Assembly: GCF_032062105.1 (NCBI RefSeq)
Contig: NW_026929843.1
Span: 38,440 to 102,439, forward strand
Direction of reading: 5' to 3'
From: Saccostrea cucullata
Taxonomy: Eukaryota
Length of the DNA stretch: 64,000 bases
Under the pieces are notes generated by a model. That model was given only the letters and a program-made list of their open reading frames with translations, made no database searches and was not told the DNA's origin. Shown here piece by piece: positions 5,835 through 33,730 of this stretch (the first letter of the stretch is position 1; each line of letters opens with the position of its first letter). A program made the position numbers and the translations under genes.

Positions 5835-6180
5835 ACACACAAGGAAAATGTATAGAACTCCACTGGCTGCGTCAATACGCACCAGGACTTCCACTGGCTG
5901 CAACATGCTATGCACCAGGACTTCCACTGGCTGCAACATGCTATGCACCAGGACTTCCACTGGTTGCAACATGCTATGCACCATGACTTCCACTGGCTAC
6001 AACATGCTATGCACCAGGACTTCCACTGGTTGCAACTTGCTATGCACCAGGACTTCCACTGGCTACAACATGCTATGCACCAGGACTTCCACTGGCTGCA
6101 ACGTGCTATGCACCAGGACTTCCACTGGCAGCAACATGCTATGCACCAGGACTTCCACGGATGGATCGTGCTGTGCACCA
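5835..6180. repeat. 33-bp minisatellite, about 10 units ('ctggctgcaacatgctatgcaccaggacttcca')
   Basis: Head-to-tail units with few substitutions. ORFs on both strands here are translations of the repeat. Confidence 0.85.
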
Positions 6181-7796
6181 GAAACACCCTGGAAACTCTA
6201 CTTGCGTCACATACGCACCAATATAAACTTCACTGGCTGTAACGTGCAAGAACATAATGTTAAATCTACTAGTTGCAGTATGTTTAGCGCCAGGATTACT
6301 ATAAAGATTACTGTGCATTAAATGTATCATACATTATGAATCTTCATGTGTAGTAAAACCAAAACTTCATAACTGTGCAAAATTATAACTATTTTATAAA
6401 CTTCTATTACAAAATACAATTCAGTACTGTTTTTCCATTATACTATATAAAGAATTTTTCACAAGTAAATTTTTAACGACTTCTAGATCACTATTCATTT
6501 TATATTCTGCGACAGTGTCCATGGATATGATTTTTATAACATTTTAAATTTCTTGAGCCTTTGGAGCGGCATTTCCATGTACATCTGATTTTCCAATTTT
6601 AACGAAGCAGTATCATAGATAACACAGATAAAGTATAATCACAACCGTTTAATGTTCGATGTAGATTCAAATATAGGGATATGAAAAACTTCCCTCATTC
6701 AAAATTTATAAATCATTACGATTATTTCAAAATAAAACCTAAAATAATAATAGTTAAGATATTTCTATTTATGACGTTGTGGTATTCCACCCCCAAAGAT
6801 TATATATACAATTCTATTCTTGTACGCTCTTGAAAACTTAGACTACTATCTATACACTGAATCGAAAAATTCCTCGACACACAACAACTTCAACCGATTC
6901 ATTATTTGTTCTCAAATATCTCATGTCTTTTGAAAACAATTTTTAATTTGCGTCGTAGTGTGATGAATGAAATCTAGTTTCTTCAAGTCATGTCCAAAAA
7001 TAACTTTTTTTTTTATTTTTTTTATACATTTTATTACCATTTTAGTCTTGTAGAATTATCATAAAATAACTTACTTAACTGTTTGAATATAAAATCAATC
7101 CTGATGTCTTCCCACAAAGTTTTATTAAAATAGAAAATTAGGTGTTATGAGGAAGACAGATACATTTTAATAAAACAAAATTGTAATAAATTCAATAAAT
7201 TGTATATATTTTCATTTTATTTAGTAAAATATGTATTTTGTTTAAGAAAAGAAACTCGTACATGTATAAGAAGAAAACAGATTGACTTTGAATAATTAGT
7301 GTCAGAATTTAACAAAAAGTACAAGTATTTTACAGTGTAAGAATTCAATTTGTCACCCAAGGTTTTCCTGTTTATTCAATATAAAACAGTTTTTGTACAA
7401 GTGAAAAAAAGGACTTTCTTTTACAAATATTGGCATGACCAGCTAATGGATTTCTATTGTATTTTGGTAAACAATTTACCTATGAGTTTTTAGAGTCAGA
7501 TGTTCAATAAGTATGATAATCAAATAATTGCGTAATAGTGTTAATCTCTTTTGTGATTTTGTCTTTTTGTTAAGAATGCCTAAGGGTCTGAAGTCAAGCC
7601 CAGGTGTTCAAGTTTACTCAATTACCGTGGCGGTCATTTTTATGTCACGTGATCACTCTGTTTTTAATTAATCATCTTTATTTGGAAAATTTTTACAACT
7701 TTCGGCTATTCATTAAGAAATTCTAAATTTTGATTGGCTAAAATCCTGTAATCCAAAGACGCGGAATCGTCGGTGAAAATTCGCCCAAGCTTGGTC

Positions 7797-18887: not shown

Positions 18888-19164
18888 GTATATCATTCTT
18901 CAGAATGATATAGAGATGGACTAGAGCCATTGATACTGTATGCAATGTATCTTTTAACTTTATATATCCTACTGGAAATCATATAATCATACCGTGTTTC
19001 AAAATTATGAAATACAGTTGACTTTATATGTAGCTGTGAATATATCAATCAAGTAATTTTTACTTTCAGAATATTTTTATTCAGAGTGCAATTATGGTAC
19101 AGAGTTTAAAAATATGATGTGATAAATTGAATCTTTGAATTAATATTTTTCTTATAACATTCAG

Positions 19165-19302
19165 ATGATGGTTGAGTATGGTATGGAGGATACAGAGTTA
19201 TCTACCCCTGTGAAGGAGCTGATGCATCACATCTGGCAGGAAGCCGGGGGCGAGATAGAGGAAATCCTTAGTAGTCCACTACAATCACTAAAACTAGACC
19301 AG
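19165..19302 (+). CDS. PARP4: PARP4-like exon 6 (PARP regulatory region)
   Basis: Acceptor aacattcag, donor gtcagt. Phase 0. 'MMVEYGMEDTELSTPVKELMHHIWQEAGGEIEEILSSPLQSLKLDQ'. The 3' end of this exon seeds the downstream minisatellite. Confidence 0.6.
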
Positions 19303-19870
19303 GTCAGTAGGTCAAGGTCATAACAGACCAGGTCAGTAGGTCAATACAGTCACTGAAACTAGACCAGGTCAGAAGTTCAAGGTCATAACAGACCAGGTCA
19401 GTAGGTCAATACAGTCACTGAAACTAGACCAGGTCAGTAGGTCACTACAGTCACTGAAACTAGACCAGGTCAGTAGGTCACTACAATCACTGAAACTAGA
19501 CCAGGTCAGTAGGTCACTACAATCACTGTCAGTAGGTCACTACAATCACTGAAACTAGACCAGGTCAGTAGGTCACTACAATCACTGAAACTAGACCAGG
19601 TCAGTAGGTCACTACAATCACTGAAACTAGACCAGGTCAGTAGGTCACTACAATCACTGAAACTAGACCAGGTCAGTAGGTCAAGGTCAATCAACTCACT
19701 GAAACTAGACCAGGTCAGTAGGTCACTACAGTCACTGAAACTAGACCAGGTCAGTAGGTCACTACAGTCACTGAAACTAGACCAGGTCAGTAGGTCACTA
19801 CAGTCACTGAAACTAGACCAGGTCAGTAGGCTACTTCAATCACTGAAACTGGACCAGGTCAGTAGGTCAA
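19285..19870. repeat. 36-bp minisatellite ('cactgaaactagaccaggtcagtaggtcactacaat'), derived from the exon 6/intron junction
   Basis: The array starts inside the exon 6 3' end ('ccactacaatcactaaaactagaccag|gtcagtagg'). Each unit repeats the 'accag|gtcagt' donor context. It continues at 20670-20840 beyond the MITE. Confidence 0.85.
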
Positions 19871-19877
19871 GGTCATT

Positions 19878-20669
19878 ACTAGGGGTGGATATCGCCAGAA
19901 AAACTATATTGCGATATATTGCAATATTTGATGGCATATTGCGATGAATATTGCAATATATTGCTTTGCTGTCCATTTCATGTAAAGTTTGAAGTGAACC
20001 GAAAAATAGTGTATCTATAAACTTAAAATACCATATCTGATCATTTCACGTCAGATAATGTTTGCTGTTCACTGTTTATTTAGTTCCCTGTCAAAGTGTC
20101 TTAGTTATTTGTGTAAGAAATCGACATATTTTTCGAGTAAAATTAAGACAGTCGACATGTTCTCCTTTTCTTAAAAAAATAACTTCGTAAAAATTCAGAA
20201 ACTGTTGTTTTATGTCATATCTCAACTTTTCTTTTCTTTTTTTTTTAAACGTGGTATGTGTCCTCAGACATAGGAATCAGAATATTTAAGCATCACAAAC
20301 CTACACTGGCTAAACATCGTTTATAACATTTTTTTCGTCCGCCATTTTGATCAAGAAAAGTACGAAACCAGAGTATAAGTTTTCTGGAAAAAATTAAGTG
20401 TTGTTGAATTGAATCTTCAACATAATCCTTGTGATGATTGTAATAATTAATCCTTTTAATTCCATGCTTACCTTTTACACACTGTTGCAATGTCTATTTA
20501 CTAACAAAAACAAACTTTACAACTGCAAATACACCATATTTAGCATTTGTGTAATACTTCCGGTTTGCATATCGTCAATACCGGTATTGAAAAAATATAT
20601 TGCAATATATTATCGTTGGGTTTAATATTGCAATATACCGATATATCGATAATATTGCACACCCCTAGT
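19878..20669. mobile_element. MITE/non-autonomous DNA transposon with TIRs '(t)actaggggtg ... cacccctagt', inserted into the minisatellite
   Basis: Terminal inverted repeats at both ends. The interior is full of 'atattgcaata' palindromic motifs. Flanking 'tcatta' on both sides is a candidate target-site duplication. The minisatellite resumes right after it. Confidence 0.7.
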
Positions 20670-20840
20670 CATTACAGACCAGGTCATTGGGTCACTACAG
20701 TCACGGATACAATACCAGGTCAGTATGTCAAGGTCATTAGAGACCAGATCAGTAGGTTAGTTATGTCACTGAAACTGAACAAGGTCAATGTAATTACAGA
20801 TCAGGTAAGTAGGTCACTACAGTCACTGAAACAGATCTTT
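20670..20840. repeat. continuation of the 36-bp minisatellite downstream of the MITE insertion
   Basis: Degenerate units 'gaccaggtcattgggtcactacagtcac...'. Confidence 0.7.
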
Positions 20841-21083
20841 ATGTGAGGTCACTATAAATATATCATTAGCTTCATATAGTTAGTGAAATTGTGACAATAG
20901 ATTCATTTGTTATTTAAAAGTCTGTAGTTGAGCAACAACTAGTCAAATTTCATATGTAAAAGCAGCAGATTATCATCATTAATTTAATCTGTCATCCATA
21001 TTTCTAACTTGACAATGCAAGATTAACTTTTCTAGAAAACTCCTCAAACCATTTAAATGCTAGATTAATCACTTCCATTTTAG

Positions 21084-21251
21084 GTTGAGAAGGCGACGGC
21101 CATTTTGTCTGAGATGAAGGAGAACCAATCAGATGAGAGTAAGCTACAGAGTCTGTTTACCGAGTTCTACTCCACGCTCCCCCACAATCCCCAGCACAAG
21201 ACCACGACCTTCACCTTGTCATGGCTGGCCAGGAAACTGGACCTTTGTCAG
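21084..21251 (+). CDS. PARP4: PARP4-like exon 7 (PARP regulatory/helical region)
   Basis: Acceptor ccattttag, donor gtacaa. Phase 0. 'VEKATAILSEMKENQSDESKLQSLFTEFYSTLPHNPQHKTTTFTLSWLARKLDLCQ'. Confidence 0.6.
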
Positions 21252-21597
21252 GTACAATGTGTTATTGAATTAGTTGCATGTCCTTGATATGGAATTTCTT
21301 TGTGCTAGGAGACTAGGATCTGTATTCTGACATGGAAATCAACAATGCTTTATTTACATGACTGTACTACATGTACTATGTAAGAAAAAGACAATCATTT
21401 ATGCATTACTTGAAGTGTCTTTGACTGATAAAAAAAAAATTGTTAAAAAAATTAATTTTCATAATGTTCAATGTACATGTCGATTTTCTTGAAGCCGACA
21501 CATGTTATGTAAGAACAGTACCTGAAAATGTCTATTAAAATAACAGGCTAATATTATATTGAGACAGTCTTGAGATGATGTGGTTTTTGTGTTGTAG

Positions 21598-21746
21598 CTG
21601 ATTAAGGACGTGGTGTCCGTGAGTGAAGCTACAGACTGGTCTACAAGGGGGAACACGGAGGCCCAGTACAAAGCCCTCAGATGTCAGATATCTCACGTTC
21701 CCGGGGGTCTACCAACACCAGTCAAAAACGTTCTCAATCTTAAGGA
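21598..21746 (+). CDS. PARP4: PARP4-like exon 8
   Basis: Acceptor gtgttgtag, donor gtaagt. Phase 0 in, 2 out. 'LIKDVVSVSEATDWSTRGNTEAQYKALRCQISHVPGGLPTPVKNVLNLK'. Its 3' part is the source of the 31-bp minisatellite immediately downstream. Confidence 0.6.
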
Positions 21747-21747
21747 G

Positions 21748-22178
21748 TAAGTACAAACCTGTATAGTAGTCAGATATCACAAGTACAAAACCCTCATATG
21801 TCAGATATCACAAGTACAAAATCCTCAGATGTCAGATATCACAAGTACAAAACCCTCAGATGTCAGATATCACAAGTACAAAACCCTCAGATGTCAGATA
21901 TCACAAGTACAAAACCCTCAGATGTCAGATATCACAAGTACAAAACCCTCAGATGTCAGATATCACAAGTACAAAACCCTCAGATGTCAGATATCACAAG
22001 TACAAAACCCTTAGATGTCAGATATCACAAGTACAAAACCCTCAGATGTCAGATATCACAATTACAAAACCCTCAGATGTCATATCACAAGTACAAAACC
22101 CTTAGATGTCAGATAACACACACATCCCTGGGGGTCTTCCAACACTGGTCAAAAACATCCTCAATCAAAGTAGTATAA
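21748..22178. repeat. 31-bp minisatellite ('cagatatcacaagtacaaaaccctcagatgt', about 12 units) derived from exon 8, ending with a duplicated pseudo-exon fragment (22100-22178)
   Basis: The unit resembles exon 8 'aaagccctcagatgtcagatatctcac'. After the array, 'cagataacacacacatccctgggggtcttccaacactggtcaaaaacatcctcaatcaaag' copies the exon 8 3' end 'cagatatctcacgttcccgggggtctaccaacaccagtcaaaaacgttctcaatcttaag'. Confidence 0.8.
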
Positions 22179-22485
22179 GTATGTTCAAACTTGTAATTAT
22201 AGTAGTCAGACAAGATAATCTCTTGAGTCTGTTAGTGTTAAAGACAGTCAAAGATTATCATATTAAAAATTAATATTAGAGTAAAGTGGTGGGAAGTGGT
22301 AAAATCTCATAATTGGTGATTAGTTTCTTGTAACATTATTGCTTATCTTACTGGGTAAGTGTGGATTCTGAAAGGCCTGAATGTTGAGTTAAAGCCAAAA
22401 TGTTATCCAACCTAGATGGCAGCTAATTTATTGTAAATGTCACAGCTTCATATTTTGTGTACCTATTGCTTACTGTTTGTTTCAG

Positions 22486-22620
22486 TGAAGATAAGTTAAA
22501 TGTACAGAATGTTTATGCCGTTCATCGTCCTGGTGAGAGTGAGGTGTTCCGGGCAGACTTAAATTCTAGACTTCTCTTTCATGCATCCAATGTGGAAAAC
22601 TTTGTAGGAATTCTCTCCAG
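22486..22620 (+). CDS. PARP4: PARP4-like exon 9 (start of PARP catalytic domain)
   Basis: Acceptor ttgtttcag, donor gtaatg. 'DEDKLNVQNVYAVHRPGESEVFRADLNSRLLFHASNVENFVGILS' shows the PARP pattern (cf. PARP1 'LLWHGSRTTNFAGILSQGL'). Confidence 0.8.
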
Positions 22621-22830
22621 GTAATGAATGCTAGACATTACCTTTGATGCCAGTTGAAGCATATTCATTTATGTAATGTTCATGTGTAACAGCATTGAAA
22701 ACTAGATATGGGATAAAGTGAGCTTGCCTGCTATTGATAAATTTATTCTTGACTAGATCATTTTTTGCTTTATTAACAATTTAAACTTACAAGCACCCAG
22801 TATTGACTCTCTTGATTGGATATTTATCAG

Positions 22831-22929
22831 AGGTCTCCTGATGCCAAAGGTCGTCGTCGATGACTACGGAGGGAAGAGAACAGACCCGGGAATGCTGGGA
22901 AATGGAATCTATTTCGCCAGTTCTGCTAG
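22831..22929 (+). CDS. PARP4: PARP4-like exon 10 (PARP catalytic core)
   Basis: Acceptor tatttatcag, donor gtttgt. 'RGLLMPKVVVDDYGGKRTDPGMLGNGIYFASSA' matches the PARP 'GKGIYFA' nicotinamide-pocket motif. Confidence 0.85.
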
Positions 22930-23343
22930 GTTTGTTTATAGTAATGACAATGTAAGATTTATTTAAAAACAGAAAATTTTACTTGAAGTGATGTATTTCA
23001 ATCAAATGCCAGTGTCAGGATGTATATAAAATATTTCGAACAATCTCATATTGCAAATTTATTATATTTAATGAATGATAAGTACTGTACCCACACTATT
23101 GCTTTGGACAACCACAAAATCAAGAAATAAGGGAGGATAAAGGGAATTCTAAAATATTCTTACATTCATTTGAAAGTTATTAAATCATTATTTTCTTCTC
23201 ATGTTTAAAGGATAGTTAGCTTAATTGCCATCCAGTCTTTTGAAAGATGAACTTTAATTGTCACAGTAGGAATATAGAACATAAATAATTAATGTCTTAA
23301 TTAAAAAGCAAATTCATGATTTATGTTTTCATTCTTTGTCCAG

Positions 23344-31057: not shown

Positions 31058-33730
31058 TTGAAATTGGTGGAAAATACCTTAAAATCCCGAGTATTGGGCG
31101 CACTTTTTTTCGTCAGAAAAATGTTCAAAAGTAGGGATGCACTCAATACATCGGAACAAAATTCATCCCCCTTTTTTTCAGGTCACTTTCTCAGTGCCGA
31201 GGACCATTTTCCTGATCCATTTGAATTGATTACCCTTTTGTAACCAATTACGTCAAAGTTAATCGAATTTTAGAGAGTTATATGCATAAGTCCTACCTGT
31301 TGTAGAAATATACATATACCCTAAGTATTGAAATAAAGAAAACCGTTTCAAAAATCAAATTCTGATGAAAAACGATCTTTGTTTATATTTTATTTCCATT
31401 GCATATTCCGCCATTTTGAACTACCGTCGCTTATATCATCAACGAACAGCATGTCGCTTAAGACATAGATGTATTTAATTAATACCTATAAATGAGTCAA
31501 AAATAGATTCCAAGTGCTAGAAGGATTAGAAAGTGTTGACGACATCTGGGAAAATATGATAAAAGGTTACAACGAGACAGCAGACAGCATACTTGGGGTA
31601 AAAGAAAAGGGACAAAAACCATGGATAAGCAGGGAGTCTTGGAAGGTAGTAGAAGAGAGGAAGCAGCTAAAACTCCAACTTACCAACAGCAGATCAGAAA
31701 GATTAAAAAGAAGTTTAAGAAATAAATATTCAGTTAAAGACAGAGAGGTAAAACGCAGTATGAGGAATAACAGGAGAAAGTGGACAGAAGACATGATTAC
31801 AGAAGCAGAAAGAGCAGCAAGTAATGGGCACATGAAAACAGTATACGAGATAACTAGAGTGTTAAGCAATGAAAAGAAAGGCATGACAACAGCAATAAAG
31901 GATAAAGAGGGGAAGATCCTGAGCAGTCAAGATGAAAGAAAGAAAAGGTGGAAAGAGCACTTTCAAGAAATATTAAACCGCCCGCAACCTGAACATCCAT
32001 TAGAAGTTGAAAGCGAAGATCAAGAATTAGATGAGATGGATACAAGTCCCATACGAAAAGAGGAAATAGTGAAGGCTATAAAGAACCTGAAGAATGGAAA
32101 GGCTGGAGGAGTAGATGGAATAACAGCTGAATTGTTAAAGGCAAACACAGAGACAACAGCAAGATATTTGGAAAAACTGTTTTCAACAATCTGGAGACAA
32201 GAAACCATACCATCAGTCTGGAGTAAAGGCCTGATAGTGAAGATCCCAAAGAAAGGTGATAGATCGGTATGTGATAATTATAGAGGAATAACACTTCTAT
32301 CTGTGCCAAGCAAAGTATTCTCCAGAATAGTAATACAGAGAATCCAAGATGGAGTTGAAAAACAGCTGCGTGAGGAACAAGCTGGCTTCAGAAGAGGGAG
32401 GAGTACAACTGAACAACTATTCACACTCCGAAACATCATAGAGCAATGCACCGAATGGAATTCAACATTGTTTATAAACTATGTTGACTTTGAAAAGGCA
32501 TTTGATTCCATTCACAGAGAGAGCCTTTGGTCCATCATGAAGTTCTATGGCATCCCAGACAAATTGGTCAGAATGGTGAAACTCCTATATGAATCATTCC
32601 AATGTGCAGTCCTTGAAGATGGAGAAGAAACGGACTGATTCTGGGTATCAACAGGAGTGAAACAGGGCTGCACAATGTCTGGATTCCTATTTCTGTTGGT
32701 CATAGATTACGTAATGAAAAGAACTACAGAAAGCGAGCCAACAGGAATAAGATGGAATTTCACAACAAAACTGGAAGACCTAGACTTCGCAGATGATCTT
32801 GCCTTACTTTCCTCCAAATTTCAAGACATCCAACAAAAGACACAAAGACTCAATGAAACTGCTAAGCAAGCTGGCCTCAGAATAAACACCGAGAAAACTA
32901 AAGTGATGAAGATCAACTCAGACATAAAAGAAGCAGTCAAGATTGATGGACAAGACCTAGAAGATGTAGAAAAATTTACTTACCTTGGAGGCGTAATAAC
33001 AACAAAGGGAGGTGCTGACGAGGACATTACCAACAGACTGGGAAAAGCTAAGTCCCAATTCGGAAGGCTCAGGAAAATCTGGAGCTCATCAAAGTTTTCC
33101 ATCCAAACAAAAGTAAAGCTATTTAACAGCCTAGTCCTGTCAGTTTTAATGTATGGAAGCGAAACATGGAAAACAACAGAGAGAGACAAAAAGAAAATTG
33201 ACACCTTCCAGAATAGATGCCTTAGAAAGATCTTGCGAGTAAGATGGCCCGAGAAAGTGTCTAATGAAGAACTCCATCAAAGAACAAAGACAGCTACAGC
33301 AAGTGAAATGATAACCCTCAGGAAGTGGAAGTGGATTGGCCATGTACTGAGGATGGATAACACCAGGATATGTACCACTGCACTGACATGGCATCCAGAA
33401 GGAAAGAGAAAAGTAGGCCGGTCAAAAACAACTTGGAGGAGGACCACGGAGCAAGAGACTGGGGAGGAAAAGCTGGGCGTCAGCGAGGGCAGCAGCAAAG
33501 ACAGAAACATTGGAGACTGTGTATTGGGGCCTTATGTGCCAGCGGGCACGAAGAGGACAGGTGAGGTGAGGTATAAATGAGTCAACAGCTATAATCTTTT
33601 TGATGTTTTTCTGATTTATTCTTATTTCTATAACTTATTTTTATGTTTTAAATTTAAGATATGTGATTTGAGTTACAAATTGTTAGGGATTGTATTGCTG
33701 CGTCATTGCTATATTTAACTTCAGTCTAAG
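31058..33730 (+). mobile_element. 5'-truncated, frameshifted RTE-like non-LTR retrotransposon (reverse-transcriptase ORFs 31514..32638 and 32657..33580) inside the intron
   Basis: RT motifs 'FRRGRSTTEQLFTLRNIIEQ', 'YVDFEKAFDSIHRESLW', 'GVKQGCTMSGFLF' and 'FADDLALLS'. There is no endonuclease domain upstream (5' truncation). The two RT halves are in different frames (frameshift near 32640). A short AT-rich 3' tail follows. Confidence 0.8.

Follow-up and report, generated by a model that had tools for sequence, protein, structure and literature searches.

Intron 8 of a PARP4 (vault PARP) orthologue in Saccostrea cucullata carries a 31-bp minisatellite immediately downstream of exon 8. The minisatellite is very probably a neutral structural by-product: a duplication of the exon-intron junction, of the type called a 'mirage' in amphioxus, with a secondary minisatellite nested inside it. 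Mirages were reportedly first described in amphioxus by Canestro and colleagues, in NAR in 2002. Of the 739 bp of intron 8, 436 bp (59%) are derived from duplication, and the array more than doubles the length of the intron. The neutrality of the array is assumed from its absence in orthologous introns and from typical VNTR behavior. The locus serves as a worked example in which a splice-junction duplication would have seeded a minisatellite and lengthened an intron more than twofold, apparently leaving the protein untouched, and in which one can still read the source, the junction product, and the decaying distal copy. The window referred to throughout is the whole stretch of DNA that was analyzed, 64,000 nucleotides in length.

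The host gene was identified by protein homology search, the best named relatives being annotated as PARP4. Stop-free stretches of the forward strand were joined in order and the assembled protein was compared with Pfam, which yielded BRCT_2 (7.9e-10), PARP_reg (4.9e-05, below the gathering score), PARP (5.9e-29), and VIT (8e-26), along with weak VWA matches (1e-4 to 1e-3) from a single further exon of the gene. The domain order is that of PARP4, namely BRCT, PARP regulatory, PARP catalytic, VIT, and VWA. Exons 6 and 8 alone gave no Pfam match; the domains were seen only with the assembled protein. Over the VIT exon the nearest relative was a Crassostrea gigas PARP4-like protein, 89% identical. 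Relatives covering the exon 8 region were only 40-50% identical, none closer than about 50%. Exons were counted from the BRCT exon, by which the exon ending at 21746 is exon 8; its product, LIKDVVSVSEATDWSTRGNTEAQYKALRCQISHVPGGLPTPVKNVLNLK, runs from the last part of the PARP regulatory domain into the beginning of the catalytic domain. The original prediction had placed the exon 8 donor at 21747, where a GTAAGT is indeed found, and the join of exon 8 to exon 9 reads ...NLK-D-EDKLNVQNVY... in continuous frame. The features of exon 8 and intron 8 are listed below, with X1 denoting the source segment of the duplication and X2 its distal copy.

21598-21746, forward strand: exon 8 of the PARP4 orthologue, 149 nt, ending in phase 2 (from the stop-free stretch, splice sites, Pfam, and orthologue alignment).
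21747-21752, forward strand: authentic 5' splice site GTAAGT (GGA/GTAAGT), the ancestral donor, conserved in position and phase in orthologues.
21665-21781, forward strand: X1, source segment, composed of the parts 'a', 'mid', and 'b' (from the alignment to X2 and a register table).
21665-21695, forward strand: X1 part 'a', exonic progenitor of the unit, the 31-mer AGTACAAAGCCCTCAGATGTCAGATATCTCA.
21696-21749, forward strand: X1 part 'mid', exon end plus donor (register table).
21750-21781, forward strand: X1 part 'b', intron start, 32 bp, AGTACAAACCTGTATAGTAGTCAGATATCACA, holding the second GTCAGATATC at 21769.
21782-22089, forward strand: minisatellite core of ten units, consensus AGTACAAAACCCTCAGATGTCAGATATCACA (from TRF, a repeat search, and a unit table).
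22090-22172, forward strand: exonic part of X2, a pseudo-exon fragment; decayed copy of the last 82 nt of exon 8, its frame broken by indels.
22173-22210, forward strand: intronic part of X2; copy of the donor and the first ~28 nt of the intron, with two 4-bp insertions.
22211-22485, forward strand: rest of intron 8, unique sequence, up to the start of exon 9 (22486).

The array was reported by TRF at 21769-22120, beginning 22 nt past the exon 8 donor, with a period of 31, 11.4 copies, 95% matches, and a score of 648; a repeat search returned twelve in-register copies at a spacing of exactly 31 bp. It is a head-to-tail array with units in the range of about 10-160 bp, and thus a minisatellite. 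Nine of the core units are 31 bp long and the last is 29 bp, in a register that begins AGTACAAA. The units are 97-100% alike: five consecutive central units are identical, and the remaining ones carry single changes. The core is flanked on one side by a diverged, unit-like stretch of 32 bp at the start of the intron (21750-21781) and on the other by the first 31 bp of the distal copy (22090-22120), such that the earlier estimate of about 12 copies, ten in the core plus these two, was a fair one. All three forward frames of the array are open. They include a 126-aa ORF at 21798-22178, the exact protein of which is not on record in public assemblies. Some caution in annotation is warranted here, as both this open reading frame and the exon-8-like X2 could be miscalled as coding sequence or as an alternative exon. 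An Rfam scan of 19000-23000 returned nothing, which leaves no explanation of the array as the host of an intronic snoRNA or miRNA.

The repeat unit derives from exon 8 itself, as the original prediction held: exon segment 21665-21695 and the unit consensus differ at only 2 of 31 positions. At the first of these, the G of the exon is replaced by A in all units and in X2 (AAAGCC to AAAACC). Orthologues retain Ala at this position, which suggests that the A is derived and marks the common descent of the units and X2. The second difference is synonymous, between the Ser codons TCT and TCA; the A of the unit is found also in X2 and in the intronic motif.

The exon end is present a second time at the far side of the array. 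Local alignment of 21598-21800 against 22060-22300 paired 21665-21774 with 22090-22210 at a score of 104, compared with a mean of 17 and a maximum of 25 over 300 shuffles; an all-against-all blastn of the window recovered the same pair (E = 1.8e-16). Excluding gaps, X1 and X2 are 87% identical (95 matches, 14 mismatches, and 13 gap columns). The terminal segment is thus homologous to exon 8, as had been claimed on first reading, but its extent was underestimated: the copy starts at 22090 and not 22100, includes about 82 nt of the exon and not about 60, and continues to 22210. A peptide comparison that accompanied the claim did not hold, collapsing after 'CQI.H' owing to indels; the homology is at the level of DNA. 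In all, X2 is a 121-bp segment (22090-22210) corresponding to the terminal 82 nt of exon 8 and 28 nt of adjoining intron, both copies ending in ...TATAGTAGTCAGA. Because the homology passes through the donor and into the intron, the duplicated object is the exon-intron junction and not the exon tail alone. The donor at 21747 lies inside X1, of which X2 is the repeat; the 31-bp units between the two do not contain the boundary itself. The donor homologue of X2, at 22173, has been destroyed by a 2-bp insertion (GTATAAGT).

Any tandem array in an assembly is prone to error, and one of the amphioxus mirages was reported to have been mis-assembled in the draft genome (PMC3087553). The array or X2 could, in principle, have resulted from mis-joined reads or collapsed haplotypes. 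However, the 14 substitutions and several indels that separate X2 from X1, together with the private substitutions of individual units, indicate real divergence, and an artefact of assembly is very unlikely. The copy number of the array could be mis-estimated in the assembly.

Comparison with orthologues bears on which came first, the exon or the repeat. The unit progenitor encodes (Q)YKALRCQIS, which aligned to the PARP4 block KYRALRCxIxH. Several of the region's nearly invariant columns fall in this block in an alignment of PARP4 from two corals plus Acropora, Lottia, a land snail, Mytilus, Solemya, a sea urchin, and a fish. Exon 8 was also placed by tblastn in three orthologous loci, those of Mytilus edulis, Solemya velum, and the bivalve-like ENA assembly ERZ25073285. 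In all three the exon starts at the same residue (L/M-I-K/R-D), ends equivalently in phase 2, and has the same acceptor and donor position. No tandem repeat or exon duplicate was found in the orthologous intron of any of the three. The conservation of the source block, the conserved position and phase of the intron, and the absence of an array from these orthologues all argue that exon 8 served as the ancestral source: the exon and its donor are ancient, and the array and X2 are derived and lineage-specific.

The reverse scenario would have the 31-bp unit be a dispersed repeat or transposon-borne satellite, with the end of exon 8 captured from, or exonized out of, that repeat. Bivalve genomes are repeat-rich, and the window itself has MITE-like copies, a LINE, and an apparently hAT-like element inside the neighboring array. 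Against this scenario, the exon and donor are ancient in orthologues, which argues that the exon did not borrow its sequence from a repeat family, and the exon sequence that matches the unit is the most conserved block of the exon across phyla. The distal copy, moreover, extends beyond the unit to cover the remaining exon, the donor, and the first part of the intron. No terminal inverted repeats, and hence no transposon termini, were found around the array, and no further copy of the unit or of the larger duplicated segment was found within the 64-kb window. JGI metagenome contigs gave 0 matches each to the unit consensus and to a 26-mer of the exon progenitor, which is weak evidence for a species that is apparently outside that collection. 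On these grounds we consider a dispersed-repeat origin extremely improbable.

Two minor observations emerged from the same comparison. Exon 8 is 149 nt long here as compared to 161-176 nt in the three other bivalve loci, and the difference in length falls in a poorly conserved stretch right after the LRCxIxH block. In M. edulis (CAJPWZ010001022.1), the annotated protein of gene model P0141 has exon 8 as its very start and EF-hand domains ('Sulfhydryl light chain') joined to it; this looks like a truncated, chimeric model and not the true architecture.

The arrangement of these segments suggests a route by which the array may have been formed. Two tandem copies exist of a segment that runs from about 82 nt before the end of exon 8, across the donor, to 28-37 nt into intron 8; X1 is functional and X2 is decaying. 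The original event may have been a single tandem duplication of about 117 bp (about 21667-21783). X1 has an exonic copy of the motif GTCAGATATC at 21683 and an intronic one, 86 bp further on, at 21769; a 117-bp duplication would thus bring the intronic motif of the first copy to a distance of 117 - 86 = 31 bp from the exonic motif of the second, creating a 1.3-copy proto-repeat of 31 bp. Such a proto-repeat is a classic substrate of slippage or unequal exchange. Next, replication slippage or unequal exchange would have expanded it to about 11 units, with homogenization keeping the central units identical while the edges diverged. Amphioxus mirages show the same turnover, with identical units in the center and divergent ones at the edges (Ebner et al., PMC3087553). 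The composition of the unit is that of a chimera: its consensus joins an intron-type tail, GTCAGATATCACA (as at 21769), to an exon-type head, AGTACAAA.CCCTCAGAT, and the distance from the motif at 21769 to the next motif at 21800 is 31 bp. In our reading, the best explanation of the 31-bp unit is as the junction product of a larger duplication of ~117 bp, not as a simple amplification of the exon end. The nested architecture that results is neat rather than surprising.

The exact order of these events is, on balance, likely. The divergence of X2 (13%, with 13 gap columns) as compared to that of the units (97-100% alike) would fit the model. The weak point of the 117-bp model is that the exact ends of the primary duplication are not readable independently of the array, and 5 bp (TATCA) must later have been lost from the end of X2 if it is to hold. 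Two successive events, the first a template switch at a 6-bp microhomology (GTCAGA), would fit as well. The same template switch as the sole event was considered and rejected, as it would not put AGTACAAAACCCTCAGAT before X2.

By a rough donor weight matrix, good for ranking only, the authentic donor at 21747 was the sole site scoring at least 2 in 21599-22300, and no donor-like site scoring at least 1 was found in 21753-22288, which covers the array and X2. Neither the 31-bp array nor X2 thus offers a second usable copy of the splice site, the donor homologue in X2 being disrupted, and read-through beyond the authentic donor stops at once (GAG TAA). With the first donor intact and no competing pseudo-donor downstream, splicing probably still proceeds from the upstream, ancestral donor, unaffected by the array. 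The array being wholly intronic, the PARP4 protein is likewise expected to be unaffected.

The array might instead have been retained by selection as a cis-regulatory module, whether as a cluster of exon-derived splicing enhancers or silencers or as decoys following a donor that is weak on its exon side (GGA/GTAAGT), tuning the use of exon 8 or a regulated, unproductive splicing of PARP4. Exon-derived units could hold SR-protein binding motifs, the exonic half of the authentic donor scored poorly in the rough weight matrix, and human tandem repeats near splice sites are reported to be associated with splicing variation (PMC10078293). Other evidence speaks against such a role: the array is missing from the orthologous intron of three other bivalves, near-identity of the units signals recent turnover and not conservation, the array is without a donor-like site, and known boundary minisatellites mostly leave splicing unaltered (PMC1557585, PMC3087553). 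A selected regulatory role is thus distinctly unlikely, and we return to the array as a neutral by-product of junction duplication in comparing it with known systems.

Boundary-spanning minisatellites are known from human F7, IFI6 (6-16), CBS intron 13, LMNB2, and PDGF intron 4 (PMC1557585), and, as mirages, from amphioxus Adh3, globins (BflGb6 and BflGb9), troponin C, and PGBD5, where they generally occur without aberrant splicing (PMC3087553, PMC3902484). The 31-bp array belongs to this already known class, to judge by the features tested: a tandem minisatellite, boundary-spanning material, and an ancestral exon. Like the amphioxus mirages, it involves a tandem duplication that takes in the exon end and the adjoining start of the intron; its copies sit in the intron beside the authentic exon, with the coding sequence intact; its central units are homogenized and its edge units diverged; and more than one such structure is possible per gene or genome. 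It differs in that the host is a mollusc and not a cephalochordate, that only the outer copies, X1 and X2, span the boundary, and that the amplified 31-bp unit is a chimera of exon-internal and intronic sequence without a splice site. Not every unit of the amphioxus mirages bears splice signals, either (PMC3087553). Length instability is a reported property of mirages; the array described here was read from one haplotype. No report of a boundary minisatellite in a mollusc was found in the literature searched, the coverage of which was incomplete, and the present case extends to a mollusc a phenomenon so far described mainly from amphioxus and a few human genes.

In the human examples, as here, the minisatellite starts at and derives from the exon-intron boundary, and the upstream, authentic donor is the one expected to be in use. 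Only the most upstream donor is used in the 37-bp VNTR of human F7 intron 7 (PMC1557585), and splicing is left intact by the arrays of F7, LMNB2, and PDGF and by the amphioxus mirages (PMC1557585; PMC3087553; PMC3902484). Unlike F7, the 31-bp array repeats no donor and its sole donor copy, in X2, is broken, such that no problem of splice-site choice arises. Mirages have been put forward as one way in which introns change (PMC3087553, PMC3902484), and tandem duplication across splice or proto-splice sites has been proposed to account for intron gain or enlargement (discussed in PMC3087553 and PMC2891723). As in tandem duplication of the Rogers type (PMC3087553, PMC2891723), a duplication bearing a splice signal has here added sequence that is removed with the intron (436 of 739 bp). 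Unlike in intron gain of that type, the duplication made no new intron and only lengthened an ancient one, shared in position and phase by four bivalves.

A second minisatellite, with a 36-bp unit, occurs in the same gene at 19270-19879 and 20668-20840. Its first unit begins within the exon ending at 19302, and every unit carries a donor: the authentic CAG/GTCAGT at 19303 and 14 further exact copies. The unit is in frame (VSRSLQSLKLDQ); the first unit past the exon is 29 nt long and introduces a TAA. The array is split by a 788-bp non-autonomous element (19880-20667) with termini TAGGGGTG...CACCCCTA and a perfect 8-bp target-site duplication, GTCATTAC; the termini and the length of the duplication form a hAT-type signature, which suggests that the element is hAT-like. 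The block of array past the element (20668-20840) is more diverged (70-88%) than the upstream part. This 36-bp array is a very close analogue of that in F7 intron 7, its first monomer spanning the boundary and 14 pseudo-donors following, and is the more useful object of the two: with 14 perfect pseudo-donors, it provides a natural invertebrate counterpart to the F7 model of 5' splice-site choice.

The two arrays of this gene are not related by sequence. The best alignment of the 31-bp and 36-bp units scored 11, compared with a shuffle mean of 12, and 69% of 1000 shuffles scored at least as high; among the 31-, 36-, and 33-bp units of the window no shared core was found (69%, 89%, and 44% of shuffles scoring as high). 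The lack of shared sequence between the 31-bp and 36-bp units indicates that their arrays were independent events. That one gene contains two independent arrays derived from exon 3' ends was part of the original prediction and agrees with these results, the 36-bp array likewise being built of an exon 3' end plus its donor.

The locus- or lineage-specific tendency to slippage that the original prediction suggested need not be invoked to account for this pair. The simpler explanation is survivorship, which adequately accounts for both arrays: of the tandem duplications initiated in exons, only those that carry the splice site leave the mRNA intact and persist. Such a filter would leave exactly the two-array picture seen here. 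A more speculative alternative is that in bivalves, as in amphioxus, tandem duplications arising at 5' splice junctions are overrepresented across the genome, beyond the mere survivorship of harmless events. The cause would then lie in transcription or splicing, such as stalled forks or template switches at R-loops that form co-transcriptionally close to donors, and the very high heterozygosity of both groups might favor it. We consider this unlikely. If it were true, the two unrelated arrays, both at exon 3' ends in a 2.5-kb stretch of a single gene, would reflect a mutational bias of the lineage by which introns are lengthened and remodeled.

Several other repetitive features were noted in the window. 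The 33-bp minisatellite lies at 5879-6181, about 10 kb upstream of the start of PARP4, with 9.2 copies and 91% matches; it is flanked by more diverged copies and is open in several frames. Also upstream of PARP4 are short direct repeats of 99-100% identity (3678-3779/4580-4681; 4416-4582/9985-10151; 7796-7873/8651-8728), the identity of which suggests very recent duplications or young copies of mobile elements. Just upstream of the BRCT exon, an inverted repeat pair (11608-12098/14772-15261) consists of arms of 491 bp, 97% identical and ~2.7 kb apart, and could represent either a foldback or a transposon with long terminal inverted repeats. Finally, two long forward-strand ORFs (380 and 307 aa) at 31496-33580, in the same orientation as PARP4, encode a LINE-type retrotransposon (RVT_1, 2.3e-15); the gene was mapped to about 30.6 kb, and the ORFs appear to lie within a downstream PARP4 intron.
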